Source of the DNA: Clostridiales bacterium
Lineage (GTDB): Bacteria > Bacillota > Clostridia > Oscillospirales > CAG-382
NCBI GenBank assembly: GCA_016286245.1
Contig: JAEESG010000001.1
Coordinates: forward strand, 460-64,459
Direction: 5' to 3'
DNA: 64,000 bases
The notes under the pieces were generated by a model that searched no databases, was not told the DNA's origin, and saw only the letters and a program-made list of their open reading frames with translations. Of the stretch, positions 1 through 64,000 are shown piece after piece (position 1 is the stretch's first letter; every line of letters starts with the position of its first letter). The translations under genes were made by a program, and so were the position numbers.

Positions 1-150
1 AAAGAGGGAGTACTTTTGGTACTTTTTCGCGAAAAAGTACAAGAAAAACGACTTTTTTGTTCCTTTCTCTCAGGGGAGAGAAAGGAACCCAAAGAGAGCT
101 GAAACATAAAAAGGTTTATGGCTGCATTTGTGCGGAAAACCGCACGAAAA
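1..150. repeat. Hairpin repeat cluster A (REP/BIME-like). It holds a truncated inverted H2-type arm (1-18) and the 22-bp perfect palindrome GTACTTTTTCGCGAAAAAGTAC (19-40). It also holds a 13-bp-stem hairpin GTTCCTTTCTCTC-aggg-GAGAGAAAGGAAC (59-88) with a CCAAAGAGAG tail, and a GTGCGG-aaaa-CCGCAC hairpin (130-145).
   Basis: Palindromes were read directly. Bases 55-107 are identical to 9045-9097. Bases 18-40 are identical to 63648-63671. Bases 1-18 are the reverse complement of 63811-63828 with 1 mismatch. Confidence 0.85.
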
Positions 151-275
151 ATCAAAAAAACGTCAAATATCATTCTTTTGGCTGATGTGAAAAGAAAAAA
201 TTTCCTTTATAATGAGTATGGGTTACTGTAATTAATAAAAAAGATATATTTTATTTCGGAGGTGCATTTTTCCAC

Positions 276-3200
276 ATGAAAAAGCGGCTATTTTACAGTA
301 TAATAGGTATTTTTGTTTTTATTTTCATGTTTTTCGGCGTAGCAAGCAGGACGCCGCTCGACCTCTCCACCCCGGCGGACGCCTTTATGGAGATTACGGA
401 ATTTGAATTTGAAAAGACAGGATTTCTTCAAGGCGAGTACCATTTGACGTACGAATGCGACGTCTGCGGCACGACGTGGGTTCTCGGAGGAACTTTTGAC
501 GGCTACAAAATGCCGGATTCGACGAAGGAGCAGCTCGTGTGGAACAACATGACCGACCGCGAAAAAAGCGATTTCCCGGGCTACTGCGAATACTGCTATT
601 TCGAGCATCTGTGCACCGGCTGTTATAAAGAAATCGATGACTGCGAAAAGTACTGCAAGGAGTGCATGAAGTGCAACGACTGCTGGGACCAGAGCAAGCA
701 CTGCAACGAATGCTGCGAGGAAAACACGCTTTGCGACGGCTGTCTCGGCATCGGCGAATACCGTTGTATTGACTGCCACAGTTCCGACGATTTCTGCTTT
801 GCCTGCGAAACCTGTCTTATTGCGGCGGGAGCGGACGGAAACGTGTGCGAAAGCGACGACCCGAAACCGCACTGCCTTGAATGCTGCGAGGACTATCGCT
901 GCGACGGATGCGCGGAATGCTTTCTCGGACGTCAGGACGATTACTGCTTAAACTGCTTTGAGTGCCTCAGCTGTGCGGCGGCGGCAAGCGACCACTGCAA
1001 AGAGTGTTACATCTGCTTTGACGTGCAGGAAGCGTGCGAGGGAACCGACGACTTCTGCCGTCCCTGCTGCGTTGCGGCCGGCAACCACTGCGATGAATGC
1101 GACGAGCACATAGACGACAACTGGTGCGAGGGCGGCATGGACGGAAGACACTGCCGCGACTGCGCCGAGGCCAACGACTGGATATGCGAACAGTGCGACA
1201 GATGCGCCGTCTGCAATGACTTCTCATTTTGCGACGAATGCGGACTGTGCTTTGAATGCTGCAGTGAAAATGCCGCGAACGAGGGCTGCGAGTGCCTTGA
1301 ATACTGCATCGAATCGGCTGATTTCACCGACGAAGCCCATCTGTGTCAGCAGTGCTTCTACGCCTTCTCGTGCGCCGAGGAATTCTGCGACACCTGCGGA
1401 CTGTGTAAGGAATGCTGTGAGATGAACGCCGACGAATACGGCTGTACGTGCGGCCTTTGCGTCGAGGACAGCGAATTTGAGGAGCATCTGTGCGAGCAGT
1501 GCGGACTCCCGACTTGCGAAAGAGGCGACTTCTGCGACGAATGCGGACTGTGCGAGGAGTGCTGTCTTGAAAACTCAGAAGCAGAGGGCTGTTCCTGCGG
1601 TATCTGCATAGAAAACAGCGATTTTGAAGACCCCGACCATAAGTGCGCGGACTGCGGACAGTTCTCGTGTAATATAGATTTCTGCGAATACTGCGGACTG
1701 TGCCTTGACTGCTGCGAGAGCAACTCCTCTACCGAATACGGCTGTTCGCACGGCGTCTGCACGGATGACCCCGAATGGAACGACCACTACTGCGATACCT
1801 GCGGAAAATGTAAGGAAGACTGCGACTGCGGACAGGAGTGCTGCGCCGACCCGTGGGCGGGAAAATCGCTTCACGGCACCGACGTGCAGATAGGCGAAAT
1901 ACTGATACAGCCTTTCAATAAGAAAAAACACGTTACGCACGACAACATGTCTGCGCCCCAGGCAAGCCTTGCCACTTTCCGCACGAAGGTTTACGACCCG
2001 AACGGAAACCTGAATTATCAGTGGTATCAGAAGAAAAACGGCGGCGCGCCCGAGGCGCTCGTCGACAATACGCGCTACGTAGAATACAGGGACGAGACGT
2101 TCATAATCGTTGACGGCGCGGCGACGCCGAGACTTACGGTTGCGACTCCGTCCGACGCCTGCCACGTAAATTACACCTACTACTGCGTAATATCCGATTC
2201 GCACGGAAACGTGCTTTCCACAACGGATGAAGCGCGCCTCATAGGAAAACATACCTACGAGTGGAAATGGGAAGACGACCATTTTCACCGTCAGGTCTGC
2301 ATAGGAAGCGGATGCGGAGACACAAAGTCCGGCATGAGAAAAGTACACGACATAGGTCCGTGGCGCTTCCTGTCGTATGCGACGGCGACGACCGGCGCAA
2401 CGCTTGCGCGCACCTGCAACGTCTGCGGAGGTATCAGCGAATCGATTAAAACCGAGCCTTTGGGAGCAAACCATACGGCTCACAACTACATATACATTCC
2501 CGTAACGCAGACAGACAAAAACGGCAAAGAGGTAAGCTATACGCACATTAAGGTCTGCCGCTGCGGAAAGAACGACGGACTCGAGGAGTATCACGACTGG
2601 AATCAGTGGATAGTAACCGAAGCCGCCGACGACCACCACAAGGGCTCGAAATATCACGAGTGTCTGAAATGCAACTACCGCGAGACGGTTGAAATACCCA
2701 TTCAGACGCACGAGCATATATTCAACCTTCACGAATACGACGCCGCGTTTTACAGGGTGGGCGCCGACAGAAAGTATCACTGGCAGTACTGCGGAGACCC
2801 CGACTGCGAGGCTGTTGCTTTCAAGGAAGAACACACTTACGGAGGCTGGATGTGGCAGTTAAACGTACCGCTGGCGCTTTATGACGCGACGATATACAGA
2901 GAATGCCAGGTTTGCGGATACATTGACGTAAGGACGATAAGGGCCGGATTCCATCCGCTCGCGTTTATAAACGCCTCCAAATCGGTGCTTTCCGCCGATA
3001 ACTGGGATTCGGAGGAAAAATATACCTGCGAGGTTACGGCAAAGCCTCCGAAGGGATATACCTTCTACCGCTGGAGAGATACCGGAGAATGCGGAATAAT
3101 TTTTGAAGAGTATTACGAAACATATCCAAACGGAGACCCTAAAAGGGATTCCAACGGCAATATAATATGGAAGCGGTATAACGTTTACGACGAGACGGTC

Positions 3201-6200
3201 GTAATATCCCTCGACCGCTACGACAAAGACGGCAATTTCCACGACCTCAACACGCTTTACGAGCTTACGGCGGAAATCAGCAGAATAGATAACGACGTAA
3301 CGGTTTACTACCCTGACGGCTTCTCATATACGCTGACCGAAGGCGAAGCTCTCGACGCCGAGGAATTCGGTATCGACGGCACGGGAGACGTTATATGGTA
3401 CGAATCGCAGGTAGAAGACGAATACGGCTACCGCACGGTAACGATTCACCTTGACGGCTACGACGGCGGTCCGCTCGTGCTTGAAAACACGGGGCTGCCC
3501 TGCGACTTTAACATAGTCGTCGACGGCGACTCCACGATTACCGCAAACGGTAAAAACTTTGCGATTTTAGGATGCGCTGCCGGCGGAAACATAAAGATTT
3601 CCTCGCCGAACGGCGCAGAGCTGAGACTCAACGTAAGAAGCGGCAAAGGAGCCGAGGTTTACGGCATAAAGGCGCGCCGCGCAAAGAAGTGGTATGGAGA
3701 CAAAATCACGATATGCGGAAATATACTCGTACAGCTTGACGTTACCAACACGAGATCCGACGGCGAGGCGTTCGGTCTTTACTCCTCGTCGTGGGTTGAG
3801 ATACTTGACCAAGCGTCCGTCGAAATGACAATAAGAAGCTACGCAGATTACCTCGGCGACGACAGAACCATTGCGGCGACCGGCGTTTATGCGAAAAAAG
3901 AGCTTCAGATAGATACGACGGGCTATATAGACATAGTCGTATACGACGTTGACGTCTCAAACGGCATGAAGGGCAGAGGCATCAACGCAAAAGACGTGAT
4001 AATCGACAATATCGGCAGCATGACCGTCGTATATCCCGCAAATTCCAAAAACGCATACAAGAGAAAGGTTTCTTACGACCACAAGGCGTACATTTTCTAC
4101 GCATACGACGACGGAAAGAGACATTACTACAGGAACGGCGCGCTTGCGGATGTAAACGACGTAAAGAAGCTCGTAATCGAGCCGGGTTATCCCGTAACCT
4201 TCGACGTCGCAAGCGGTTCTACGCTCAACGTTGACTACCTTTACACAAACGACCTCGGCGATTACATGATAAAGCCGGGCGACGACCTGATATTCTACAC
4301 GGCTCCCGCGTCGGGACACTACAAGGAGAACGTAAGAGAGGGCGCGAAAGTGCTCAAGCCGAGCTCCTCCGACGACGGCGTAAGAACGAAATATGTGCTT
4401 GAGAACATAACCGCTCCGCATACGTTCACCGTTGACACGGGATACCTGTTCAGACCGTTCGACTCACAGCCGGCGCTCTCGCAGACGGACGTGTTCTTCG
4501 GAAGCGAAGCGATAGTAACGTTTACCATGAACAACGTATTTTCGGCGCTTGAAGGACACGCAAAGTTCGACGGAGACAAGCCGACAACCCCGAAATTCGC
4601 GCTTAAGAAGCTTTCGGGAGGCGCAGCTTCAAGCGGAGACCTTATTTCCCACGGTCAGACCGCAAACGAGGTGTTCTTACAGCGCTACAACGAGGAGACC
4701 GAATTCTTTGAGAACACGGGAATCTCGTTTGAGCCGACTGCTCTCGGAAACGTATCCTTCAACGACGAGGAATACTCGTCGCGGCTCGCAACCGTAAGGT
4801 ACCGCCTCATGGTGCTGTACGACGGCATGGAATACTGCTCCGACGAGTTCACGGTTCACTGGACCGACAACGAAAACGACAGGACGACGCCGGTTGCGTC
4901 CGCTGTCGAAATATACATCAAAAAAGCGCTCAGAGGCTATCCGCTCGGGGTATACGAGGACGGAGGCGCCTGGGAGAGACTCGGAAGCGAATACGAACTG
5001 CTCGTATACGACGTTGACCAAGGAAAAGGCTACGTCGAGACGAAAAACGAGTACAACAAGGCGGTAAACGTAAAGAAAAACCGCAAACTGCTCAAGGTTG
5101 CCGAATTTGACTACCACACCGGTCTGCTTACGCTTTACGGCGACCTTCAGGGAGCCGATTTTGACGGCGACGGCAACACGGAATGGTACAACCTTTCCGA
5201 TTTTCTCGTTGCAATACGCGTTCCGTCGACCGTAAACGGCGGAATTACGATAGACGTAAGAGAAGAAACGAATATTTCGGGACATTACGAAGATTTCGGA
5301 AACGAAGGCTGGTACGGCAGCGGCGGACTTGAAAACGTAACGCATACCGGCGCGATTCCGGCGGTTATACAAAACGAGAGCGAATACGGCTCCGTTCACA
5401 TAACCTCAACCACGGAAAGCGATGCGTTTTTAATCCTCGAACGCACCGGAACCGAGTATTTCGAGGGCATAACCTACTACGGAATCAAGGCGAACGGCGA
5501 CGTTACGATTGACGGCGACGTAAACGTACAGATTTTCTCCGACGCGAAGTCCGGTTACGAGGACGCGTACGGCAAGCTTGCGTACCGCATCGGCGTATAT
5601 GCCGAGGGAGACGTCAACGTAATCCAAGACGCGAATTTGGACGTAGTTTTTGAAGCAAACACCAACGGTACGGCGTTCCTTAAAGGAAAAGCGCTCGGAG
5701 TCAAGGCGCAAGGCAGCGTAAACATCCTTGATTACGGCTGGATATACCTGTACTGCGAGGCAAAGAAGTCAAATCTCGCCGGCACGTACTACATGCTCGA
5801 AGCAAGCGGCTTGAATATAGCAGGACACGGACAGCTGTCGGCATTCGGCGAAAAGGAAATTGATATTCCCGTTTATATTGACGGCGACGCGTTCATTTCG
5901 ACGACAGGAAAGATAGAACTCAGCTCGAAGAGCAGCAACGGCGCATATTCAAACTGCATCAAGACCACCGGCGACCTTGTTATCAAGGAGCCCACGACGA
6001 TTTTGTTCGAGTATCTGGGAAGACCGGCGGGCGGCAGTCCCGTATATGAAGGCGACGTTGAATATGACGGCGACGTAGTATGCTATCTGACAGACGGCGC
6101 GGCGTCCACCAAAGAAGAATATTACCCCGGAGTTCCCTACACCGTTGCGGTTGAAACCGATTACGGCGCGGCTGACTTCGGCAACCACGAAATAATCATA

Positions 6201-8990
6201 AAACGTAACGGCGTCGAGATTTCACAGCAGGTCGACGCGGGTTATCTTAATGTATGCAAGGGCGACTTTGTAACGTACACGGCGGTCGACGCTCTTGACG
6301 GATACAGCTTTGACGGCTGGGTTGTCGAATCGAGCATTGCGCCCGAGGACCTTGTGATAAACGGACGTGAAATTTCGTTTACGATGCCCGACAAAGACTT
6401 AAAGCTGCACGCGGTTTACTCCAGCTACGCGTTTGAAGAGGAGCCCCCGTACTTCATCATCACGAACAAGGCTTCGACGGAAGGCAAGATTCACTGGAGA
6501 ATCGACACGGGCGAGTCGACCCTGTACGGGGTAGACCTTGAGTACCTGCACACCTCCGTAAGCGGCGAAACCGAGTGGCGCTCCTTCAGCAGCGGAGCTA
6601 ACGGATGGAGGCTGAGTCAGGATATTCAGGCGTTTATGAACCCGAGCAACGGCGAATATATCTATAAAGGAGCGTCGCTTGTAGGACTTGCGGGAAGCAG
6701 CACGCTTGAAAGAGTAATCGACACAAACGAGTACAAGACCTTCCGCATACATGCGTGGGGCATCAATGACTATTACAGTAAACCCTTCACGATAGATTTC
6801 GCAAAGGGCATACACGTTCTTCTGTCGGAAGACAGAGAAAATCCCGGTCTTGCAATTCCCGCGGACTACATGGGAACGGAATATCTCGTAAACTTTGCAA
6901 AATACGTTTACTCGGACATCGGACCCATGAGCTATTCGCTGAACTTTGCCGACCTGTTCGGCCCGATAAGCCCGAGCGTATGCCAGGCGAACATGTTTGA
7001 AAACGGAATGCTGCGCTTCATAAGAAACGGCGCGCACTCGGCGGTTTACGGCATAGAAGGCTCGCTTTACGTTACGGCAACCGACGAAACGAGCGGCAGA
7101 TCCTTCAATATTCCGTTCGATTTCGGCGAAATATACGAATGCGAAGTATATCCGCTCATAGTTGCGGGTAAGAAGGTAACCGAACGCAATAAAGATAACG
7201 TATTCGGCGACGGAACGGTTTCGTACGACCCCGAAACCAAGACGCTGACGCTGCACGACGCGACGATAGACGAAATTTATCCGATGCGTTCCGACGCCGA
7301 GCTTACAATCGCGGCATACGCGATACTGAGCGTACAGGACCTCAACATCAATCTTGTCGGCGAGAACGTCATCAACGTTTCGCGCAACTCGCTGTGCCAC
7401 ACCCAGGCGGTAGGAAGCATCTATACGGGCAACACGGTGGGTATAGGAAACGTGATAAACGACACGTGGCGTCCGTACCTGACGGAAAGCGACGATTTCC
7501 GCATAAATATCAGCGGCGAGGGCTCGCTTGAAATTTTGATTGACGGTTTCTACGGCGACGGAATCCACAGCATAGGCGACGTAACGATAGACGGCGGCAA
7601 CGTAAAGATAAAATCCGAATACTCGGGTATTTCCTCCGAAACCGGCTCGTTTGTAATGAATTACGGCACGCTTGACGTTGATACCGCGCAGAGAAGCTGC
7701 GTAGCATTGTCCGGCAGCGATGCCCGCTTCACGATAAACGGCGGAACCGTAAGCTTAAACGGCGGAACCGACAGCTACGTAGTTTCCATGGGACCCACAA
7801 ACTACCAGAATGAAAACTATATGCAGCTGAACGACGGTGAACTGAGACTTGACACAAAGTCCGCAACGTACGACCTCACAAGCCGCACGTTATACTATAC
7901 CGACTGGATGTATAAGCTTTACGGCGCAAACGGAAACAACGCGATGGCGCCTCTTGAATACGGCGAGGTTGCTTCGTCGTTCGACCACCTGAAATACGTA
8001 CGTCAGTATGCAATCTGGGTAAACGGCAAGCAGCTCACGTCGGAAAATCTTGAGGTACAGTGCGGCAGAGGATACGCGTTCTACGTTCCCGAAGTGAATA
8101 CGCTTTACCTCAACAACGCGCAGATCACAAAGGGCGTTGCATACTGGAACGGACCTCTTGCGGCGGCGGGCATCCGCTCGCAGCAGCCCGTAAACGTTTA
8201 CTTCTCGGGCAATAACTCGATAGACCTGTCCTCGAAAGAATATTACGAGATCAACGGAGATCCGTACGAGCTTCAGAGCGAGGAAACCGAAAACAGCCGC
8301 GAAATATTCGGTATAGAAGTGTCCCAGTCCCTCGGATTTGACGACTACTACCTCGGAATTTACGGCACGGGCTATTGCACAATGACCGGAATGAGCACCG
8401 GAATCAGCGCCGGCACCGGAAATATGCCGATAATCATCGACGGCCCCGGTATACAGATTACCGACAGCGACGGCGGTATCGAGGGCGAAATTGATATAAA
8501 CTCCGGTTATCTGGGAATAGAAGCCGATTACTTCAGTATCTACGGACTTATCGATACGTCCGACTACAGCCCGATTTTCGCATACGGCGGAGCGTCTAAA
8601 ACCAACTTTTCGCCCGTAGATATGTCGGTTGTCGAAAACGCGGCAAATATGGGCTGGGGTTACGATTATCCGTTCTTCAGACTGCATAACAGAGCGGGCT
8701 TGACCGAACAGACTATCGTCGGAGATATCCTTGAAATATCGGATGAAGAAACAAAGATCGGTGTAAGCACGGAAGGCCTTGCAAAAGAAGTGCCGACCGA
8801 CGTAATCGTTATCCAGTATAAGAACGGAAGAGTAACGCAGGCAAGAGTCGTTACGGTTTATCCGTCCGATTACGACGACGTAATCCTCCTTACCTTCGGT
8901 ACGGATAAAAACGCAAAATACCGCGTTTACGCACTCGATAAACAGCTGAAACCTCTTACCGACGTCTATAATATAGGAACTGAAGAATAA
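276..8990 (+). CDS. Giant (2,904 aa) membrane-anchored or secreted multidomain surface protein of unknown function. Domain order: N-terminal hydrophobic signal/anchor, CXXC-rich region, an Ig-like domain, His/Cys zinc-ribbon-like modules, GY[ST]FxxW (Listeria-Bacteroides-repeat-like) segments, and several beta-solenoid-like G-x-V/I-x-I blocks.
   Basis: An uninterrupted 8.7-kb ORF. A GGAGGTG RBS lies about 10 nt upstream of the ATG. The N-terminus MKKRLFYSIIGIFVFIFMFFGVA is hydrophobic. A rho-independent terminator follows at 9004-9031. Domain calls come from motif reading only (YQWY...YYCVISD Ig-like; GYSFDGW; repeated G-D-V-T-I-D-G strands). Confidence 0.9.
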   Translation: MKKRLFYSIIGIFVFIFMFFGVASRTPLDLSTPADAFMEITEFEFEKTGFLQGEYHLTYECDVCGTTWVLGGTFDGYKMPDSTKEQLVWNNMTDREKSDFPGYCEYCYFEHLCTGCYKEIDDCEKYCKECMKCNDCWDQSKHCNECCEENTLCDGCLGIGEYRCIDCHSSDDFCFACETCLIAAGADGNVCESDDPKPHCLECCEDYRCDGCAECFLGRQDDYCLNCFECLSCAAAASDHCKECYICFDVQEACEGTDDFCRPCCVAAGNHCDECDEHIDDNWCEGGMDGRHCRDCAEANDWICEQCDRCAVCNDFSFCDECGLCFECCSENAANEGCECLEYCIESADFTDEAHLCQQCFYAFSCAEEFCDTCGLCKECCEMNADEYGCTCGLCVEDSEFEEHLCEQCGLPTCERGDFCDECGLCEECCLENSEAEGCSCGICIENSDFEDPDHKCADCGQFSCNIDFCEYCGLCLDCCESNSSTEYGCSHGVCTDDPEWNDHYCDTCGKCKEDCDCGQECCADPWAGKSLHGTDVQIGEILIQPFNKKKHVTHDNMSAPQASLATFRTKVYDPNGNLNYQWYQKKNGGAPEALVDNTRYVEYRDETFIIVDGAATPRLTVATPSDACHVNYTYYCVISDSHGNVLSTTDEARLIGKHTYEWKWEDDHFHRQVCIGSGCGDTKSGMRKVHDIGPWRFLSYATATTGATLARTCNVCGGISESIKTEPLGANHTAHNYIYIPVTQTDKNGKEVSYTHIKVCRCGKNDGLEEYHDWNQWIVTEAADDHHKGSKYHECLKCNYRETVEIPIQTHEHIFNLHEYDAAFYRVGADRKYHWQYCGDPDCEAVAFKEEHTYGGWMWQLNVPLALYDATIYRECQVCGYIDVRTIRAGFHPLAFINASKSVLSADNWDSEEKYTCEVTAKPPKGYTFYRWRDTGECGIIFEEYYETYPNGDPKRDSNGNIIWKRYNVYDETVVISLDRYDKDGNFHDLNTLYELTAEISRIDNDVTVYYPDGFSYTLTEGEALDAEEFGIDGTGDVIWYESQVEDEYGYRTVTIHLDGYDGGPLVLENTGLPCDFNIVVDGDSTITANGKNFAILGCAAGGNIKISSPNGAELRLNVRSGKGAEVYGIKARRAKKWYGDKITICGNILVQLDVTNTRSDGEAFGLYSSSWVEILDQASVEMTIRSYADYLGDDRTIAATGVYAKKELQIDTTGYIDIVVYDVDVSNGMKGRGINAKDVIIDNIGSMTVVYPANSKNAYKRKVSYDHKAYIFYAYDDGKRHYYRNGALADVNDVKKLVIEPGYPVTFDVASGSTLNVDYLYTNDLGDYMIKPGDDLIFYTAPASGHYKENVREGAKVLKPSSSDDGVRTKYVLENITAPHTFTVDTGYLFRPFDSQPALSQTDVFFGSEAIVTFTMNNVFSALEGHAKFDGDKPTTPKFALKKLSGGAASSGDLISHGQTANEVFLQRYNEETEFFENTGISFEPTALGNVSFNDEEYSSRLATVRYRLMVLYDGMEYCSDEFTVHWTDNENDRTTPVASAVEIYIKKALRGYPLGVYEDGGAWERLGSEYELLVYDVDQGKGYVETKNEYNKAVNVKKNRKLLKVAEFDYHTGLLTLYGDLQGADFDGDGNTEWYNLSDFLVAIRVPSTVNGGITIDVREETNISGHYEDFGNEGWYGSGGLENVTHTGAIPAVIQNESEYGSVHITSTTESDAFLILERTGTEYFEGITYYGIKANGDVTIDGDVNVQIFSDAKSGYEDAYGKLAYRIGVYAEGDVNVIQDANLDVVFEANTNGTAFLKGKALGVKAQGSVNILDYGWIYLYCEAKKSNLAGTYYMLEASGLNIAGHGQLSAFGEKEIDIPVYIDGDAFISTTGKIELSSKSSNGAYSNCIKTTGDLVIKEPTTILFEYLGRPAGGSPVYEGDVEYDGDVVCYLTDGAASTKEEYYPGVPYTVAVETDYGAADFGNHEIIIKRNGVEISQQVDAGYLNVCKGDFVTYTAVDALDGYSFDGWVVESSIAPEDLVINGREISFTMPDKDLKLHAVYSSYAFEEEPPYFIITNKASTEGKIHWRIDTGESTLYGVDLEYLHTSVSGETEWRSFSSGANGWRLSQDIQAFMNPSNGEYIYKGASLVGLAGSSTLERVIDTNEYKTFRIHAWGINDYYSKPFTIDFAKGIHVLLSEDRENPGLAIPADYMGTEYLVNFAKYVYSDIGPMSYSLNFADLFGPISPSVCQANMFENGMLRFIRNGAHSAVYGIEGSLYVTATDETSGRSFNIPFDFGEIYECEVYPLIVAGKKVTERNKDNVFGDGTVSYDPETKTLTLHDATIDEIYPMRSDAELTIAAYAILSVQDLNINLVGENVINVSRNSLCHTQAVGSIYTGNTVGIGNVINDTWRPYLTESDDFRINISGEGSLEILIDGFYGDGIHSIGDVTIDGGNVKIKSEYSGISSETGSFVMNYGTLDVDTAQRSCVALSGSDARFTINGGTVSLNGGTDSYVVSMGPTNYQNENYMQLNDGELRLDTKSATYDLTSRTLYYTDWMYKLYGANGNNAMAPLEYGEVASSFDHLKYVRQYAIWVNGKQLTSENLEVQCGRGYAFYVPEVNTLYLNNAQITKGVAYWNGPLAAAGIRSQQPVNVYFSGNNSIDLSSKEYYEINGDPYELQSEETENSREIFGIEVSQSLGFDDYYLGIYGTGYCTMTGMSTGISAGTGNMPIIIDGPGIQITDSDGGIEGEIDINSGYLGIEADYFSIYGLIDTSDYSPIFAYGGASKTNFSPVDMSVVENAANMGWGYDYPFFRLHNRAGLTEQTIVGDILEISDEETKIGVSTEGLAKEVPTDVIVIQYKNGRVTQARVVTVYPSDYDDVILLTFGTDKNAKYRVYALDKQLKPLTDVYNIGTEE
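1227..1850 (+). repeat. Intragenic tandem repeat. Four ~150-bp (49-52 aa) units each start with FC(D/E)xCGLCxxCC and carry 11-14 Cys.
   Basis: Unit starts fall at 1227, 1383, 1530 and 1680, all in frame. The nucleotide core ttctgcgaNNNNtgcggactgtg recurs at each start. Confidence 0.9.
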
Positions 8991-9003
8991 AGTAAAATAA
9001 ATA

Positions 9004-9031
9004 AAAAACCTCGCGTAAGCGAGGTTTTTTG
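9004..9031 (+). terminator. Rho-independent terminator of the giant gene
   Basis: AAAAACCTCGC-gtaa-GCGAGGTTTTT stem-loop followed by a T-run, 14 nt after the stop codon. Confidence 0.85.
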
Positions 9032-9044
9032 TTTATTTTTACGG

Positions 9045-9190
9045 TTTTGTTCCTTTCTCTCAGGGGAGAGAAAGGAACCCAAAGAGAGCTGAAACATTAA
9101 AGAGATGTATAGTAGCATTTGCGCAGTAAAAATTCATCTGAAAATGTATTAAAATTGAAAGTTCTTTGCCGAGCTTTCTTTCAAGAAAGC
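9045..9190. repeat. Hairpin repeat cluster B. It has an H3 hairpin (9049-9078) plus CCAAAGAGAG at the left end, a central GCATTTGCGCAG segment, and an inverted CAAAGAACTTTC plus H2-type hairpin GCTTTCTTtcaaGAAAGC (9157-9190) at the right end.
   Basis: Bases 9045-9097 are identical to 55-107. Bases 9157-9190 are the reverse complement of a near-copy of 63683-63717. The element has an overall imperfect inverted-repeat layout. Confidence 0.8.
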
Positions 9191-9197
9191 GACCTGA

Positions 9198-9593
9198 TTA
9201 AATAAGATCCGTCAGTTTTTTTGAGTAAAAGAAGTTGTGGACAAGCTCGTCGTATTCGTGCCAGAGGGGGAGGGTGCGGCACTCCTTTGCGCGCGGGCAT
9301 TCTTTTGCGTCGGGCGCAAGGCAGGCGACGGCTGTAAGCGAATTTTCCATAAGGTCTATAATTTCTCCGACGGAATATTCCTCGGGTTTTCTGCAAAGCA
9401 TATATCCGCCGCCTTTTCCGCTCGAACCTTTTATAAGATTGCCTTTCACGAGGTCTTTTACGATTATTTCAAGATATTTTTTCGATATTTCCTGTCTTTC
9501 GGCTATATCTTTCAGCGGAACGTATCCTTTTTTGGTCTGCTCCGCAAGATCGAGCATAACCCGCAGCGCATACCGACCTTTTGTCGAAATCAT
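9198..9593 (-). CDS. Rrf2-family transcriptional regulator (IscR/CymR-like)
   Basis: The N-terminus MISTKGRYALRVMLDLA is typical of the Rrf2 HTH. Three clustered Cys are present (CLAPDAKECPRAKEC). The start was trimmed from the ORF-track 9671 to the ATG at 9593, which has an AAGGAAG RBS. Confidence 0.9.
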   Translation of the reverse strand: MISTKGRYALRVMLDLAEQTKKGYVPLKDIAERQEISKKYLEIIVKDLVKGNLIKGSSGKGGGYMLCRKPEEYSVGEIIDLMENSLTAVACLAPDAKECPRAKECRTLPLWHEYDELVHNFFYSKKLTDLI

Positions 9594-9614
9594 ACGATCT
9601 CTTCCTTTCTTTTC

Positions 9615-9647
9615 ACCTATTATACCACAGGTTAAATAGGTAATCAA
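9615..9647 (-). promoter_or_regulatory. Candidate promoter of the Rrf2 gene with an embedded inverted repeat (putative autoregulatory operator)
   Basis: On the minus strand: TTGATT (9642-9647), 17 nt spacer, TGgTATAAT (-10 at 9619-9624). The inverted repeat ACCTATT (9615-9621) / AATAGGT (9635-9641) spans the spacer. Confidence 0.55.
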
Positions 9648-9690
9648 GCATTTTATCTGATTTTTTTGCAAAACCGTATATTTTTATGTA

Positions 9691-9727
9691 ATTACCTATT
9701 GACATAGTAGGCAAAAGGCTGTATAAT
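9691..9727 (+). promoter_or_regulatory. Candidate sigmaA promoter of nifS-nifU-mnmA, overlapped by a third copy of the ATTACCTAT motif
   Basis: TTGACA (9699-9704), 17 nt spacer, TATAAT (9722-9727). ATTACCTATT (9691-9700) is the reverse complement of ATAGGTAAT at 9636-9644. Confidence 0.6.
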
Positions 9728-9755
9728 ATAAAAAAACACATGAGGAGGAAAGGAA

Positions 9756-10943
9756 ATGAATATATACGCGGATAACGCCGCGACGACAAAAATGAGCAAA
9801 AAGGCGGTTTCGGCGATGATGCCGTATTTTGAAGAACTTTACGGCAACCCGTCAAGCCTTTATTCTGCGGGACAGAGGGCGAAAGAGGCGATAGAGGAGG
9901 CGCGCGAGACGATAGCCGGGATTATCGGAGCTTCCGCGCGCGAGATTATATTTACGTCGGGCGGCACCGAGAGCGACAATCAGGCGATAATGTCGGCGGC
10001 GGCAAACGGAAAGCGGCAGGGAAAATATCACATCATTTCCGACGCAATCGAGCACCACGCGGTGCTTCACACGTTGAAAAAGCTTGAAAAAGAGGGCTTT
10101 GAAGTAACCTACGTTCCCGTTCACAAAAACGGTATAATAAACGTTTCGGCGCTTGAAAAGGCGATAAGGGACGACACCTGCCTTGTTACCGTCATGTACG
10201 CAAACAACGAGATAGGAACGGTACAGCCGATAAAGAAGATAAGCGAAATATGCCGTCGGCGCGGAGTCGTTTTCCACACCGACGCGGTGCAGGCGGTCGG
10301 ACACGTTCCGATAGACGTAAACGACCTTGGCGTTGATATGCTTTCGGCGTCGGCGCATAAATTTCACGGCGCAAAGGGCACGGGATTCTTATACGTTCGG
10401 CGCGGAGTGCGTATTTCGAGTTTTATAGAGGGCGGCGAGCAGGAAAGAGGAAGACGCGCGGGCACGGAAAACGTCGCGGGCATAGTTTCGATGGGAGCGG
10501 CTCTCAAAGAAGTTGCCGCGGATATAGACAAAAACGTACCGAGAATTACGGCTTTGCGAAACAGACTTATCGACGGGCTTTCCGAGATACCGCATTCGGC
10601 GCTCAACGGAGACAGGGAAAAGAGGCTTCCCGGAAACGTGAATTTCTGCTTTGAGGGCATTGAGGGCGAGTCGCTGCTGCTGCTCCTCGATGACAAAGGA
10701 ATAAGCGCTTCTTCGGGATCTGCGTGCGCGTCGGGCTCGCTTGACCCGAGCCACGTGCTTCTTGCGATAGGCAGGGTGCACGACGTTGCGCACGGCTCGC
10801 TCAGACTTACGCTCGGCGAGGATATAACGCAGAAGGAAATCGCGTATATTATAAAATCGGTTAAAGAAGCGGTTGAATATCTGAGAGGATTTTCTCCCGT
10901 CTGGAACGACTGCGTGTCGGGCAAATCCAAATTCATATTGTAA
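9756..10943 (+). CDS. nifS: Cysteine desulfurase (NifS/IscS, class V aminotransferase)
   Basis: 395 aa. PLP-lysine motif SAHKFHGAKG and the active-site loop SSGSACASG are present. GGAGGA RBS. Confidence 0.95.
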   Translation: MNIYADNAATTKMSKKAVSAMMPYFEELYGNPSSLYSAGQRAKEAIEEARETIAGIIGASAREIIFTSGGTESDNQAIMSAAANGKRQGKYHIISDAIEHHAVLHTLKKLEKEGFEVTYVPVHKNGIINVSALEKAIRDDTCLVTVMYANNEIGTVQPIKKISEICRRRGVVFHTDAVQAVGHVPIDVNDLGVDMLSASAHKFHGAKGTGFLYVRRGVRISSFIEGGEQERGRRAGTENVAGIVSMGAALKEVAADIDKNVPRITALRNRLIDGLSEIPHSALNGDREKRLPGNVNFCFEGIEGESLLLLLDDKGISASSGSACASGSLDPSHVLLAIGRVHDVAHGSLRLTLGEDITQKEIAYIIKSVKEAVEYLRGFSPVWNDCVSGKSKFIL

Positions 10944-10956
10944 GGAGGCAGAAAAA

Positions 10957-11340
10957 ATGGCATTATACAGCGAAAAAGTTATGGATCATTTCCGCAATCC
11001 GAGAAACGTCGGAAGAATCGAGGACGCCGACGGCGTCGGAGAAGTCGGCAACGCAAAATGCGGCGATATAATGAAAATGTATCTTAAAATAGAAAACGAC
11101 GTCGTAGTCGACGTCAAGTTCGAGACGTTCGGCTGCGCAAGCGCCGTAGCTTCCAGCTCCATGGCGACCGAGCTTATCAAAGGCCGGCCGTTAAGCGAGG
11201 TAAAAAAACTTACCAATAAGGCGGTGGCGGAAGCGCTCGACGGGCTGCCGGACTATAAAATGCACTGCTCGGTACTTGCCGAAGAAGCAATACTAAGTGC
11301 GCTTGAAGACTATCAGAAAAAAACCGGAAAGAAGATATAA
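10957..11340 (+). CDS. nifU: Fe-S cluster assembly scaffold protein (NifU/IscU N-terminal type)
   Basis: 127 aa. Conserved GNAKCGD, FGCASA and HCSVLA cysteine motifs are present. Confidence 0.95.
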   Translation: MALYSEKVMDHFRNPRNVGRIEDADGVGEVGNAKCGDIMKMYLKIENDVVVDVKFETFGCASAVASSSMATELIKGRPLSEVKKLTNKAVAEALDGLPDYKMHCSVLAEEAILSALEDYQKKTGKKI

Positions 11341-11344
11341 CCGC

Positions 11345-12427
11345 ATGGAAAAAGTCGTAGTCGGGATGTCCGGCGGAGTTGACAGCGCCGTTGCCGCATA
11401 TCTTCTGAAAAAAGAGGGATATGACGTTATCGGTATAACTCTGCGCATCTGGCAGTCCGATGACGGCAGCGAGGGACGATGCTGCGATATTGACGACGCG
11501 CGGAGCGTTGCATTTAAGCTGGGCATACCGTATTATGCAATAAACTGCACGTCGGATTTTCAAAAGCACGTTGTAGACCCGTTTGTTAAAAATTATCTTT
11601 GCGGACTTACACCGAATCCGTGCGTCGAATGCAACAGATACGTAAAATGGGAAAAACTTCTTTACTATGCAAAGATAACAGGCGCAAATTATATCGCAAC
11701 CGGGCACTATGCGTCGGTCGTAAAGGCAGACAACGGAAGATATACGTTGAAAAAGGCTTTGCACAACGAGAAAGATCAGACGTATATGCTGTATAAACTA
11801 ACGCAGGAACAGCTTGCAAAAACGCTGATGCCGCTCGGAAGCGTTTCAAAAAACGAGGTCAGAAAAATTGCCGTGGAAGCGGGCTTACCCGTTGCATCAA
11901 AGCCGGATTCTCAAGAGGTATGCTTTGTAACCGACGGCAGTTATGCGGATTACATTGAAAAGACAAAAAAGACCGGGTGCGGAGGAGAAGGTTTGTTTGT
12001 GGATGAAAAGGGAAACGTTCTCGGCAGACACAAAGGCATTATACACTATACCGTCGGTCAGCGAAAGGGACTCGGAATAGCACTCGGATATCCCGCTTAC
12101 GTAAAGGAAATACGTCCCGAAAAAAACGAAGTGGTAATCGGGAGCGAAAACTCGTTGTACAGCCATATAATTTTGTGCGGAAATCTGAATTTTATGAGTA
12201 TTCCGAAAATGGATAAAAACGAAACGGTAAACTGCACGGTTAAAGTCCGGTACGGGCATAAAGGACAACCGGCAAGACTCGTGCTTACGGAAAAAGACAA
12301 GGTAAAAATAACTTTTGACCAACCGGTAAGAGCCGCAGCTCCGGGACAGTCAGCCGTATTTTATGACGACGGGGGATATGTCATCGGAGGAGGTATTATA
12401 ACCGAAGTATTGGGACAGCGGGAGTAA
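11345..12427 (+). CDS. mnmA: tRNA 2-thiouridine(34) synthase MnmA
   Basis: The PP-loop SGGVDS follows the start MEKVVVGMSGGVDSAVAA. The start was trimmed from 11297 to the ATG at 11345, just after the nifU stop. Confidence 0.95.
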   Translation: MEKVVVGMSGGVDSAVAAYLLKKEGYDVIGITLRIWQSDDGSEGRCCDIDDARSVAFKLGIPYYAINCTSDFQKHVVDPFVKNYLCGLTPNPCVECNRYVKWEKLLYYAKITGANYIATGHYASVVKADNGRYTLKKALHNEKDQTYMLYKLTQEQLAKTLMPLGSVSKNEVRKIAVEAGLPVASKPDSQEVCFVTDGSYADYIEKTKKTGCGGEGLFVDEKGNVLGRHKGIIHYTVGQRKGLGIALGYPAYVKEIRPEKNEVVIGSENSLYSHIILCGNLNFMSIPKMDKNETVNCTVKVRYGHKGQPARLVLTEKDKVKITFDQPVRAAAPGQSAVFYDDGGYVIGGGIITEVLGQRE

Positions 12428-12431
12428 ACGA

Positions 12432-13337
12432 ATGAACGTTACACAGCTCAAATATGTTTTGGAAACGGCAAATTCATCATCAATGAGAGAGGCGTCGACA
12501 AAGCTGTACGTATCGCAGCCGGCTCTTTCGGCAAGCATACATGATCTTGAAGACGAACTCGGCATTTTGATTTTTGAAAGAACAAATAAAGGAATCTCTT
12601 TGACTGATGAAGGCAGGGAGTTTTTGATTTATGCAAAAAAAGCGGTCGGACAGTATGAAATTCTTGAAGACCGCTATTTATCACGCAACAGCGAAAAAGA
12701 GCGCTTTTCCGTATCAACTCAGCACTACAATTTTTCTATCAAGGCGTTTACCGAGGTCATAAGGAATATTAACCCGGACAAATATGTTTTTTTCATTCAC
12801 GAAACGAAAACAAAAGAGGTTCTCGACGACGTCGCAAGCCTGAAAAGCGAGGTAGGAATAATTTCTTTTTCCGGCTCAAACGAAGCCCTTATAAAAAAGC
12901 TTTTCCGCGATTACAGGCTGGAATTTACACCGCTTATGCAAAGGGAAACCTTTATATACGTCTGGAAAGGACACAAACTTGCCGGCAGAAAAGAGATTTC
13001 CATAGGAGAAATGAAAGATTATCCGTGCATTTCGTTCGATCAAAGCAGCGACGGCAATTTCTATCTTACCGAGGAGGCAATGGCGGATTATTCGTTTGAT
13101 AAAATGATTAAATCCGATGACAGAGCCACAACCATGGAGCTTATAGCTGAGCTGGGCGGGTATTCCATAGGATCCGGAATGCTGTCGAAAGAGGATTCCG
13201 TTCTGAAAGGACTCGTCGCAATAAAAATGATAGAGGAAGATCCGCTTACAATCGGATATATAACAAGAAAAGGAAGCGCCTTGTCCCGATACGGCAGGGA
13301 ATACGTAAAGGAGCTTCTTAAATACAAGGAAATTTAG
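12432..13337 (+). CDS. LysR-family transcriptional regulator, probably controlling sulfur amino-acid genes
   Basis: The N-terminal wHTH reads LKYVLETANSSSMREASTKLYVSQPALSASIHDLEDELG. At 301 aa it has the typical LTTR length. metY and cysK lie adjacent. Confidence 0.85.
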   Translation: MNVTQLKYVLETANSSSMREASTKLYVSQPALSASIHDLEDELGILIFERTNKGISLTDEGREFLIYAKKAVGQYEILEDRYLSRNSEKERFSVSTQHYNFSIKAFTEVIRNINPDKYVFFIHETKTKEVLDDVASLKSEVGIISFSGSNEALIKKLFRDYRLEFTPLMQRETFIYVWKGHKLAGRKEISIGEMKDYPCISFDQSSDGNFYLTEEAMADYSFDKMIKSDDRATTMELIAELGGYSIGSGMLSKEDSVLKGLVAIKMIEEDPLTIGYITRKGSALSRYGREYVKELLKYKEI

Positions 13338-13345
13338 ATAAAACT

Positions 13346-13417
13346 TTGCGATAGGCAATGCTTATCGCAAACGATAAACATAAACGAATTTACAAGCATT
13401 TCCGTTTGTGGTACAAT
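13346..13417 (+). promoter_or_regulatory. LTTR-box-like palindrome plus candidate metY promoter
   Basis: The palindrome TTGCGATA-N9-TATCGCAA (13346-13370) contains ATA-N9-TAT. It is followed by TTTACA (13389-13394), 17 nt spacer, and TGgTACAAT (-10 at 13412-13417). The palindrome centre is about -65 from the expected TSS. Confidence 0.5.
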
Positions 13418-13449
13418 ACTGTCAAACAAAAACAAAGGAGACGTAAATT

Positions 13450-14730
13450 ATGAGCAATTACAAATTTGAAACACTGCAGCTCCACGTCGGACAGGAGCAG
13501 GCGGACCCTGCGACAGATTCGCGCGCGGTTCCGATTTATCAGACAACTTCATACGTTTTTCATAACAGTAAGCACGCCGCAGACCGTTTCGGTCTTGCCG
13601 ACGCCGGAAACATATACGGAAGGCTTACCAACTCCACGCAGGACGCGCTTGAAAAAAGAGTAGCGGCACTTGAAGGCGGCGTCGCGGCGCTCGCGACTGC
13701 GTCGGGAGCTGCGGCGATCTCGTATACGATAGAGGCGCTGGCGCAGAAAGGCGAGCATATCGTCGCGCAAAAGACGATATACGGAGGAAGCTATAATCTG
13801 CTTGCGCATACGCTTCCGCTGTACGGCATTGAAACGACGTTTGTCGACGTTCATAACTTAAACGAAGTAAAAAGCGCGATAAGACCCGAAACAAAGGCGG
13901 TTTTCATCGAAACGCTCGGAAATCCCAACAGCGATATTCCCGATATTGACGCGCTGTCTGATATCGCGCACGAAAAAGGAATTCCGCTCGTCATAGACAA
14001 TACGTTCGGCACACCGTTCTTTATCCGCCCGATAGAACACGGCGCGGATATCGTAATCCATTCCGCGACAAAGTTCTTGGGCGGCCACGGCACGACGCTC
14101 GGCGGAATAATCGTAGATTCGGGAAACTTTGAATGGACTCCCGAAAAATATCCGAACATAGCGGCGCCGAATCCCAGTTATCACGGAGTGTCGTTTACGA
14201 AAGCGGCGGGTAAGGCGGCTTTCGTAACCTACGTGCGTGCAATTCTGCTTCGCGATACGGGCGCGTGTATCTCGCCGTTTAACGCCTTTCTGCTTTTGCA
14301 GGGCGTGGAAACGCTCTCTCTCAGACTCGAAAGACATGCGCAGAATACCAAAAAGGTTGTCGAATATCTTTCAAAGCACCCGCTTGTTGAGCGCGTAAAT
14401 CATCCGTCTCTTCCCGACCATCCGCAGAACGCGCTTTACAAAAAGTATTTTCCGAACGGCGGCGGCTCGATATTCACGTTTGACGTAAAGGGAGGAAAAG
14501 AGGAGGCGTGGAAGTTTATCGACGCGCTGAAAATCTTCTCGCTGCTCGCAAACGTCGCAGACGTAAAGAGCCTTGTCATACACCCCGCAACGACAACCCA
14601 CTCACAGCTTTCGAAAGAGGAGCTTGACGAGCAGAACATACATGACAATACAATAAGGCTTTCAATAGGCACTGAGCATATAGACGATATAATTGCCGAC
14701 CTTGAAAACGGATTTGCAGCGATAAAATAA
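13450..14730 (+). CDS. metY: O-acetylhomoserine sulfhydrylase (aminocarboxypropyltransferase)
   Basis: 426 aa Cys/Met-metabolism PLP enzyme. Motifs HSATKFLGGHG and YGRLTNSTQ are present. Confidence 0.9.
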   Translation: MSNYKFETLQLHVGQEQADPATDSRAVPIYQTTSYVFHNSKHAADRFGLADAGNIYGRLTNSTQDALEKRVAALEGGVAALATASGAAAISYTIEALAQKGEHIVAQKTIYGGSYNLLAHTLPLYGIETTFVDVHNLNEVKSAIRPETKAVFIETLGNPNSDIPDIDALSDIAHEKGIPLVIDNTFGTPFFIRPIEHGADIVIHSATKFLGGHGTTLGGIIVDSGNFEWTPEKYPNIAAPNPSYHGVSFTKAAGKAAFVTYVRAILLRDTGACISPFNAFLLLQGVETLSLRLERHAQNTKKVVEYLSKHPLVERVNHPSLPDHPQNALYKKYFPNGGGSIFTFDVKGGKEEAWKFIDALKIFSLLANVADVKSLVIHPATTTHSQLSKEELDEQNIHDNTIRLSIGTEHIDDIIADLENGFAAIK

Positions 14731-18561: not shown

Positions 18562-18637
18562 GGGCTCGTAGCTCAGTTGGGAGAGCGCCGCGTTCGCAAC
18601 GCGGAGGTCAAGGGTTCGAATCCCTCCGGGTCCACCA
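18562..18637 (+). tRNA. tRNA-Ala (anticodon CGC), with encoded CCA
   Basis: A 76-nt cloverleaf was folded by hand. The acceptor is GGGCTCG/CGGGTCC with the G3:U70 Ala identity pair. The anticodon loop is TTCGCAA, the T-loop is TTCGAAT, and the 3' end is ACCA. Confidence 0.92.
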
Positions 18638-18640
18638 AAT

Positions 18641-18675
18641 CAAAAATCCTGTCTTTCGACAGGATTTTTGATTTG
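18641..18675 (+). terminator. Rho-independent terminator after tRNA-Ala
   Basis: CAAAAATCCTGTC-tttc-GACAGGATTTTTG followed by a T-rich tract. Confidence 0.85.
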
Positions 18676-63575: not shown

Positions 63576-63647
63576 TTTAACATTTTATTCAAAGTTTGTC
63601 GATTATATGGTATTATAATTATATTAAATATTATATATTGATTTTAC

Positions 63648-63850
63648 TGGTACTTTTTCGCGAAAAAGTACCAAAAAGTTCCCGCTTTCTTGAAAGAAAG
63701 CGGGGCAAAGAACTTTCAAATTTTTATGTTTTAGGTGTGGTTTCTCTGCACAAGTGCGGCTGTTTGCAAAATAAATCTTTTTACGTACTTTTCTCCCGCA
63801 AGAAAAGTACCAAAAGTGCTCCCTCTTTCTTGAAAAGAAAGAGGGGTAAA
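63648..63850. repeat. Hairpin repeat cluster C, made of two tandem H1-H2 units. The first unit is GTACTTTTTCGCGAAAAAGTAC (63650-63671) followed by CCGCTTTC-ttgaaa-GAAAGCGG and CAAAGAAC (63681-63717). The second is GTACTTTTCT-cccgca-AGAAAAGTAC (63785-63810) followed by CCCTCTTTCTT-gaaa-AGAAAGAGGG and TAAAGAAT (63821-63853).
   Basis: Read directly. The units are homologous to clusters A and B. The region lies in a non-coding tail of more than 400 bp at the window end. Confidence 0.85.
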
Positions 63851-64000
63851 GAATACGCCGAAAAACCCGACGCTGTTTTTGGAAAAGAGAAAACTTTCAG
63901 CGAAAATTCCGCGCCGTGATGTTTTTCGGCGGCTGCAAAAGCACATTTTTTTCGAAGTTTCACTTTGCACCCGTCGAAAAAAATCTGCTCGGCTACACGT

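Follow-up and report, generated by a model that had tools for sequence, protein, structure and literature searches.

The repetitive extragenic palindromic (REP) sequences, REPINs and bacterial interspersed mosaic elements (BIMEs) of Enterobacteria and Pseudomonas are short, imperfectly palindromic hairpins, each bordered on one side by conserved sequence. They lie between genes, often past gene 3′ ends, form inverted doublets and mosaics of hairpin types in alternating orientation, vary between strains and are substrates of rearrangement. Modular repeats resembling miniature inverted-repeat transposable elements (MITEs), such as pneumococcal BOX (boxA-boxB-boxC), RUP and SPRITE and the Correia elements of Neisseria, are non-coding, multi-copy and intergenic, with an inverted-repeat or foldback structure; their presence varies between close strains, and short-read assemblies break at them. 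All these traits recur in a repeat family that we describe here from a 64,000-nt stretch of a Clostridiales bacterium genome (the window; GCA_016286245.1, contig JAEESG010000001.1), in which two identical 53-nt sequences bracket a gene for a protein of 2,904 amino acids (aa), called here the giant gene. Likeness to two other kinds of system is partial. Palindrome-associated transposable elements (PATEs), which derive from the insertion sequences (IS) IS200/IS605, resemble the family in that their subterminal hairpins stand next to conserved bases and that neither a terminal inverted repeat nor a target duplication is evidently required. Integron cassettes and composite transposons share with this locus a promoter-to-terminator gene unit between two hairpin-containing repeat copies.

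We consider it probable that each 53-mer is the conserved core of a separate element and that both elements belong, independently of each other, to a lineage-specific and non-coding family of REP/BIME-like or MITE-like repeats. The family is dispersed and modular, built from the hairpins H1, H2 and H3. A sequence-only reading of the window had pointed out the identical 53 bp at 55-107 and 9045-9097, spaced 8,990 nt apart, and an exact search for the 53-mer (TTTTGTTCCTTTCTCTCAGGGGAGAGAAAGGAACCCAAAGAGAGCTGAAACAT) gave the same two sites, both on the + strand. Each copy consists of TTTT, the perfect 13-bp hairpin H3 (GTTCCTTTCTCTC-AGGG-GAGAGAAAGGAAC) and a 19-nt tail (CCAAAGAGAGCTGAAACAT). No third site was present in the window at up to 3 mismatches, and shuffled controls gave 0 matches in 100. 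That reading was also right that the repeats enclose the promoter region, the 8.7-kb open reading frame (ORF), its terminator and nothing else, since the remaining ORFs of the interval all overlap the giant ORF (276-8990) in antisense. It had missed the 13-bp hairpin in each 53-mer, the longer host elements (1-162 and 9045-9197) and the related modules at 63640-64000. The features are as follows.

1-162, + strand: element copy A, truncated by the window start (nhmmer match 12-206, E 7e-45)
55-107, + strand: 53-mer copy A, made of TTTT, H3 (59-88, loop AGGG) and the 19-nt tail
163-275, + strand: leader and presumed promoter of the giant gene, 98% shared with contig L131
276-8990, + strand: giant ORF of 2904 aa, with an N-terminal hydrophobic segment, Cys-rich repeats and Flg_new_2 and Cthe_2159 domains
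9003-9030, bidirectional: intrinsic terminator, a 12-bp stem between an A-run and a T-run
9045-9197, + strand: element copy B, touching the stop codon of the Rrf2 gene (nhmmer match 9044-9195, E 1e-41)
9045-9097, + strand: 53-mer copy B, 14 nt past the terminator, with H3 at 9049-9078
9198-9593, - strand: Rrf2-family regulator gene, oriented towards the giant gene and away from IscS-IscU-MnmA; a neighbour of the repeats, outside them
63642-64000, - strand: third repeat-bearing gap, with H1 (63648-63673), H2 and its GCAAAGAAC tail (63681-63716), H1 (63785-63810) and H2 (63821-63845)

The similarity of the two copies is confined to the core. A repeat search lengthened the pair to 57 nt at 98% identity. 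Outside the core, the left flanks of copies A and B are 22% identical. Of the 30 bp or so of further degenerate similarity claimed earlier on the right, some is present (57% over the next 40 aligned columns), but it is weak and is followed by 29%. Because their flanks are only 22-57% alike, we regard copies A and B as independent members and not as products of a recent duplication.

The core is dispersed. A 20-mer from it (GGAACCCAAAGAGAGCTGAA) had 0 matches in 185,579 species-representative genomes, so that the H3 module of the window's lineage is absent there, and 10 occurrences in 8 metagenome contigs (L001-L008). These occurrences represent 9 distinct sites, as L004 and L008 hold one locus. 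Seven of the 10 lie at most 200 nt from a contig end, and the neighbours are housekeeping genes. With the window, this gives 11 H3 units at 11 sites, plus diverged H3-like copies and H1 and H2 modules. In an alignment of the 11 copies, mean pairwise identity was 0.93 in the core, a value somewhat inflated by the 20 of 53 positions that were fixed by the search pattern, and 0.65-0.71 in the flanks. As the core is near-invariant in all copies, the 53-nt identity in the window reflects conservation of the family and not a recent event at this locus.

The aligned unit is about 190 nt long and consists of H1 or a variant, H5; a spacer; H3 with its tail CCAAAGAGAGCU; about 70 nt; and AAGUUCUUUGCC (flank AAGTTCTTTGCC) with H2. 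Base pairing between AGAGAGCU of the H3 tail and AAGUUCUU of the H2 flank holds in 9-10 of 10 units. The tail and the flank are inverted copies of each other, and the unit is a doublet of REP-like hairpins, H3-tail ... tail′-H2. Compensatory changes occur in the stems of H1 and H2. Conserved sequence flanks each hairpin: AAAGTTCTTTGC for H2, AGTACTTTTG for H1 and, on the opposite strand, AGCTCTCTTTGG for H3.

Units and half-units accumulate in intergenic DNA, and inverted pairs of units around a centre of about 300-450 nt make foldbacks of 0.8-1 kb. For example, the foldback at 6660-7510 of L001 (-244 kcal/mol, z = -20) has two inverted arms (about 200 nt, 83-91% complementary) around a conserved centre and occupies the entire gap between two convergent genes. 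The terminator hairpins of these genes (6646-6678 and 7503-7535; ACACCCACGCACGAAAATCGTGCGTGGGTGT and ACACCCCGCACGAAAATCGTGCGGGGTGT) are near-identical, so the composite may bring or include its own terminators. In L003 the modules extend over more than 950 nt, and the 14-kb contig L006 runs from mid-composite to mid-composite. In window copy B, L001, L002, L005 and L007, the element starts 12-22 nt past a terminator, as is typical of the family. No small ORF inside the composite elements was convincing as a coding sequence. The idea of an invertible promoter was also rejected, since foldbacks lie between convergent genes (L001) and an invertase is absent.

Within the window, a scan for perfect hairpins found strong hairpins only as A/T-flanked terminators, except in the three gaps 1-110, 9045-9197 and 63640-63850, where the hairpins are H3, H1 (GTACTTTT..AAAAGTAC) and H2 (CCNCTTTCTT..AAGAAAGNGG, flank AAGTTCTTTGCC). 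Copy A starts with the 3′ half of an H2-type hairpin (1-8) and the tail AGTACTTTTG (9-18), followed by H1 (GTACTTTTT/AAAAAGTAC, 19-40), a spacer, H3, the tail CCAAAGAGAGCTGAAACAT (89-107) and a second spacer, in which GTGCGG and CCGCAC form a small hairpin (about 128-143); the customary terminal AAGTTCTTTGCC-H2 is missing. Copy B has no H1 on its left and consists of H3, the tail, a 61-nt spacer, AAGTTCTTTGCC (9159-9170) and an imperfect H2 (GAGCTTTCTT..AAGAAAGCGAC, 9171-9193). The third gap has no H3; the conserved centre of a composite foldback begins there (about 63850-64000), so that the right end of the window (63640-64000) is the left arm and the beginning of the centre of such a composite. 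The source contig has 64,591 nt, and the window ends at most about 600 nt from its ends, in repeat DNA. In a search with Rfam 15, the window gave one tRNA alone, and in L001, L003, L004 and L008 no score rose above about 37 bits, all being below the gathering score; judged by E-value there was likewise no match. The tRNA gene (18562-18634, 62.8 bits) is immediately followed by a hairpin with an 18-bp stem at 18636-18675.

One module, H2, reaches far beyond the window's lineage, where nhmmer found it as the only part of the 190-nt unit. A pattern for its flank and stem (TTCTTTGC-N4-CTTTCTT-N2-AAGAAAG) matched at least 120 genome stretches, several of them per genome. Among the matches listed, nearly all were in gut or rumen metagenome-assembled genomes (MAGs) and isolates labelled Oscillospiraceae, Acutalibacter, Pseudoflavonifractor, Gemmiger/Subdoligranulum, Faecalibacterium or 'Clostridia'. 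In these matches, the four unfixed pairs at the stem base gave 55 double-change cells, against 21 +/- 3.4 after shuffling (0/500), and controls with slid partners were also much lower. At position 19, 82 of 123 copies have an A, and the base opposite is G in 99 of 123, so that a mismatch or bulge recurs here. The orientation of the module relative to flanking genes is mixed, and it often lies 20-50 nt from a gene 3′ end.

Further observations concern the context of this module. The motif AAAG-TTCTTTGC-N4-CTTTCTTTCAAGAAAG-N4 is near-invariant in many genomes of Oscillospiraceae and Clostridia (L011-L130; for example, L025 at 6077-6104, L053 at 6764-6791, and L116), and often stands after a second small hairpin of the GCGAAACGAAGTTTCGC or GGCAAGTATTTGCC type and before an H1-like hairpin (xTACTTTT..AAAAGTAx). 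At the end of one contig (L045, 4700-5107, MGBC157731), three units of 168 nt, each with H2 and the GCAAAGAAC tail, follow one another head to tail up to the last bases of the contig; the family thus also exists in tandem form. A few matches were in MAGs labelled Alistipes, Rikenella, Thermoguttaceae and Nanosyncoccus (L013, L024, L085, L087, L110, L128, L027, L054, L090). These may be mis-binned Clostridia contigs, which we suspect, or may indicate a real spread outside Bacillota.

Comparison with relatives showed that both copies stand at junctions that differ between strains. A relative of the giant protein with 98% identity is encoded on L131 (GCA_017959195.1), where 4807-13681 corresponds to window 163-9038 at 98.07% DNA identity; the rest of L131 is unmatched to the window. 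On the left, the leader follows immediately after the terminator of a LuxR-type response-regulator gene, and on the right, a convergent DUF4234 gene stands at most about 10 nt past the giant gene terminator. In two independent assemblies, L134 (97.0%) and L135 (98.4-99.8%), the match to the window also ends at 9038 and is followed by DUF4234; the terminator (9003-9030) is the final stretch common to all four. None of L131, L134 and L135 had a match to the element unit, and L131 also lacks H2. On the other side, L136 matches window 9185-11969 (Rrf2-IscS-IscU) at 99.1%, beginning at 9185 and running rightwards. Past the Rrf2 stop, it carries a different H2 variant and an inverted H3 core with other flanks, and the contig ends 142 nt out. 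The adjacency of the giant gene and Rrf2 was seen in the window alone among these assemblies. Besides GCA_017959195.1, related strains are represented in GCA_002308975.1, ERZ28653736 and JGI 3300041004. The absence of elements from L131, L134 and L135 and the variant in L136 place the repeats at junctions that vary between strains of 97-99% identity.

Other comparisons added little. A look-up of the exact Rrf2 protein matched only on a 1,127-nt contig, and look-ups of the giant protein and IscS yielded no recorded gene position. In synteny based on IscS, the closest relatives were 76% identical and kept Rrf2-IscS-IscU, with a different far side of Rrf2 (L009, L010); these two were rejected as empty sites because they are uninformative. 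Homologues of the giant gene at 50% identity (L132, L133) were in yet other contexts.

Several observations were made on the relatives and on the giant gene itself. In L131 (1068-4754), a HisKA_7TM sensor kinase gene, an unknown gene and the LuxR/GerE-type response-regulator gene stand directly upstream of the giant gene, which this two-component system may control. The end of a LuxR-type gene (79% DNA identity, paralogous or orthologous) precedes the 1-kb composite element in L003. Gene calling splits the giant gene in two in L131 (1721 + 1117 aa, about 10085-10281) and into several fragments in L135 (between 1325-1369, 2697-2753 and 5367-5461). A 1-nt indel or short stretches that do not match could account for this, and these could be assembly errors, pseudogenisation or variable segments. 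Judged from the sequence, its product is probably a surface or secreted protein. The N-terminal fifth (window 600-1800) is a run of Cys-rich repeats with CxxC/CxECC motifs, outside any Pfam family, and the DNA at 1227-1741 has a period of about 150 nt with 65-74% identity between units. No strong sigma-70 consensus was present in the leader (163-275), where the promoter is an inferred one. A foreign origin of the gene was rejected, as its codon usage is native (relative synonymous codon usage, r = 0.95) and a plasmid or phage match is absent. Pfam scans of 50 ORFs of the window found ordinary chromosomal genes, among them Rrf2-IscS-IscU-MnmA, PriA-Def-Fmt-RsmB-RlmN-PknB-RsgA, SpoIIR, AddB, a polysaccharide cluster and HisS-AspS. 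The same scans found no recombinase, transposase or integrase, in agreement with the earlier remark that no recombinase gene is present.

These results suggest a sequence of events. Members of the family would spread as non-autonomous DNA through a trans-acting enzyme, or through recombination between modules, and their dispersed homology would make them substrates for homologous recombination. In its simplest form, elements were first gained in the window's lineage, one past the upstream terminator and one past the terminator of the giant gene, which is the family's usual position. An inversion or deletion between dispersed copies would then have made Rrf2 the neighbour of the giant gene in place of DUF4234; the right-hand copy coincides with the breakpoint of the rearrangement that joined the two genes. 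The sequences themselves show the family, how it is built and dispersed, and the junctions that vary between strains, and from them we infer that the elements are mobile, that an enzyme acts on them and that recombination caused the rearrangement.

Several points weigh against this interpretation. The contigs L001-L008 are from metagenomes and may be of another species than the window. Copy A is truncated by the window start, so that a simple local insertion on that side is an assumption. No partner enzyme or transposase was found among the 50 scanned ORFs of the window, and no target-site duplication was recognised when the occupied junctions of the window were compared with the empty ones of L131. 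Beside H2, no protein family recurred in the 120 listed loci, only housekeeping genes, and there was no transposase. Finally, the 64 kb hold just two H3 copies, and these are in adjacent gaps, for which the chance is about 2-5% among some 50 gaps if placement is random. This hints that the pairing around the giant gene may be more than coincidence.

Such pairing would be expected if the 8.9-kb segment from promoter to terminator had been relocated as a unit, for example by excision between H3 units and Campbell-type re-integration beside Rrf2, which would leave direct hybrid copies. We think this unlikely, although several observations fit it in addition to the somewhat improbable adjacency. 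At either end, the stretch common to the window and L131 stops just short of the element, and L131, L134 and L135 have another, element-free context. The left side of copy A (H2′-H1-H3) and the right side of copy B (spacer-H2) would together make one canonical unit like that of L007, and perfect identity is limited to the core, as at a crossover site. However, a crossover is not needed to explain the identity of a core that is near-invariant in all copies, and both elements lie just past terminators, the family's usual site. The left neighbour may still be the LuxR-type gene, in which case the right junction alone was rearranged. No circle, empty site on the Rrf2 side or recombinase was found, and the codon usage of the giant gene is native.

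The earlier suggestion of a cassette inserted between copies of a dispersed repeat was thus correct in two parts: the repeat is dispersed, with 9 further core copies and related modules in Oscillospiraceae and Clostridia, and its copies coincide with the ends of a strain-variable segment (163-9038 in L131; stop at 9038 in L134 and L135). The 53-mers do not serve as a boundary signature of a cassette, as the core is about 93% conserved in the 11 copies, the codon usage is native, and no integrase, transposase or attC-like site was found. Integrons differ further from this locus: an integrase is absent from the 50 scanned ORFs, and H3 pairs perfectly over 13 bp around a loop of 4 nt, unlike the bottom-strand structure with extrahelical bases of attC. 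In contrast to both integron cassettes and composite transposons, the segment has its own leader and its repeats belong to a large intergenic family; unlike those of composite transposons, the flanking elements are 150-160 nt long and non-coding, with no IS or transposase. Integron, composite transposon and recent duplication were all rejected on the features tested.

The same reading held that recombination between the repeats would delete the gene. In bacteria, a few tens of identical bases suffice for RecA-dependent recombination, and low-frequency deletion of the gene across the 53 perfect bases is therefore possible in principle. No such product was seen. The single-copy product would have Rrf2 joined to the DNA upstream of 55; L136, the sole 99%-identical contig that reaches past Rrf2, has the inverted core and other flanks and ends after 142 nt. 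Deletion would be a by-product of the direct orientation of the copies and not a designed cassette mechanism.

The modules might instead be kept for a role in cis, as stabilisers of mRNA 3′ ends, auxiliary terminators, insulators or sites for a nucleoid or regulatory protein, with the pair insulating or regulating the giant gene. This seems rather improbable as the explanation of the pair, and it is compatible with the two copies being independent members of a dispersed family. H2 and its 5′ flank AAAGTTCTTTGC are conserved across genomes labelled Oscillospiraceae, Acutalibacter, Pseudoflavonifractor, Gemmiger/Subdoligranulum and Faecalibacterium, the stem shows compensatory changes with a frequent A opposite G below its invariant part, modules are often 20-50 nt from gene 3′ ends, and copy B would be transcribed in the 3′ region of Rrf2 ahead of the shared terminator. 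On the other hand, the orientation relative to genes is mixed, strains of 97-99% identity lack elements at the same junctions and are otherwise visibly unchanged, no Rfam family is present, the hairpins lack U-tracts, and folding the whole unit gives a covariation term of about 0. For a role as 5′-UTR (5′ untranslated region) or terminator in particular, the mixed orientation and the missing U-tracts are arguments against.

A chimeric contig, joined through the repeat so that the giant gene and Rrf2 are not true neighbours, is very unlikely. The suspicion arises because DUF4234 follows the giant gene in three independent assemblies and Rrf2 does so in the window alone, and because the repeat is multi-copy and elements of this kind interrupt other assemblies. 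Against it, no more than 53-57 nt are exactly repeated, copy B has on both of its sides sequence that differs by 14-20% from every other copy seen, and the terminator, the core, the copy-B spacer and the Rrf2 stop lie within about 200 nt, a distance that read pairs reach. L136 confirms a family element beyond Rrf2. Even a chimera would still require an H3 unit 14 nt past the giant gene terminator, where the three other assemblies have none. That a recent local duplication, as a long target-site duplication or a segmental duplication, made both 53-mers deserves almost no credence: perfect identity over 53 nt and direct orientation are what it predicts, but to the left of the core the two copies show no relationship (22%) and to its right a poor one (57%, then 29%), and each of them is matched by copies from elsewhere at least as closely as A matches B, with L007 90.6% identical to copy A over 127 nt and 86.3% identical to copy B over 146 nt.

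Independent membership in a dispersed family therefore remains our preferred reading, and the closest systems in kind are REP/REPIN/BIME or modular MITEs such as pneumococcal BOX. Two features of MITEs were found: terminal inverted repeats, in the arms of L001 and in the 190-nt unit with its inverted hairpin-plus-tail ends, and presence/absence polymorphism in close relatives, with L131, L134 and L135 lacking the element and L136 carrying a different one by Rrf2. The differences from BOX, RUP, SPRITE and Correia elements are that no parent IS, transposase or target-site duplication was found here and that the modules are individually perfect or near-perfect hairpins; we know of no sequence similarity between those elements and the H1/H2/H3 family. 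In contrast to REPs and REPINs, no 5′ motif of the GTAG type is present, the flanks being (A)AGTTCTTTGC or AGCTCTCTTTGG. The units are also longer (about 190 nt, with foldbacks of 0.8-1 kb), and conservation of the H2 core across many genera is unusual for REPs.

Membership of a REP-RAYT system is not established. No REP-associated tyrosine transposase (RAYT) linked to the family was found in the window or by phmmer over the loci. A phmmer search with two Y1 seeds over all loci, including the window, gave a single match, in L059; otherwise, a Y1 gene is absent from the window and 134 loci, which sets the family apart from PATEs. PATE ends are, moreover, asymmetric and strand-specific, whereas the element here is symmetric with inverted arms. 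The L059 match (1157-1657, - strand) is a RAYT-like gene (E 1.7e-10 with the E. coli RAYT seed; weak Pfam Y1_Tnp below the cut-off). It is followed at 990-1130 by an inverted pair of its own GTAG-containing repeats (TGTAGGGACCGACGTCC...), a layout like the classical REP-RAYT one and unrelated to H1/H2/H3.

The invariant stem top, the covarying stem base, the frequent A-G mismatch and the conserved 5′ flank lead us to a more speculative proposal. H1, H2 and H3 might be recognition sites of an enzyme system that is widespread in Oscillospiraceae-type Clostridia, moves or recombines the modules fast enough for strains of 99% identity to differ, and might relocate promoter-to-terminator units, the giant gene being an example, between sites marked by the elements. 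We hold this only tentatively and think it unlikely to be right as it stands. If true, it would amount to 'cassette shuffling' of surface genes in gut Clostridia, independent of a recombinase or carried out by a novel one.

We found no description of the repeat family: Rfam did not match it, the core sequences appeared in no searched paper in a relevant context, and a literature search for REP and RAYT in these taxa gave nothing relevant. The perfect 53-bp direct repeat around the giant gene is probably the core of a dispersed family and carries no cassette signature, and a tempting over-reading of it is thereby removed. The family breaks metagenome assemblies and coincides with differences in gene order between strains of 97-99% identity, including differences beside the gene for a probable surface protein of 2,904 aa. 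It is therefore relevant to the quality of MAGs, to structural variation at the strain level in gut Clostridia and possibly to the loss, gain or relocation of large surface-protein genes.

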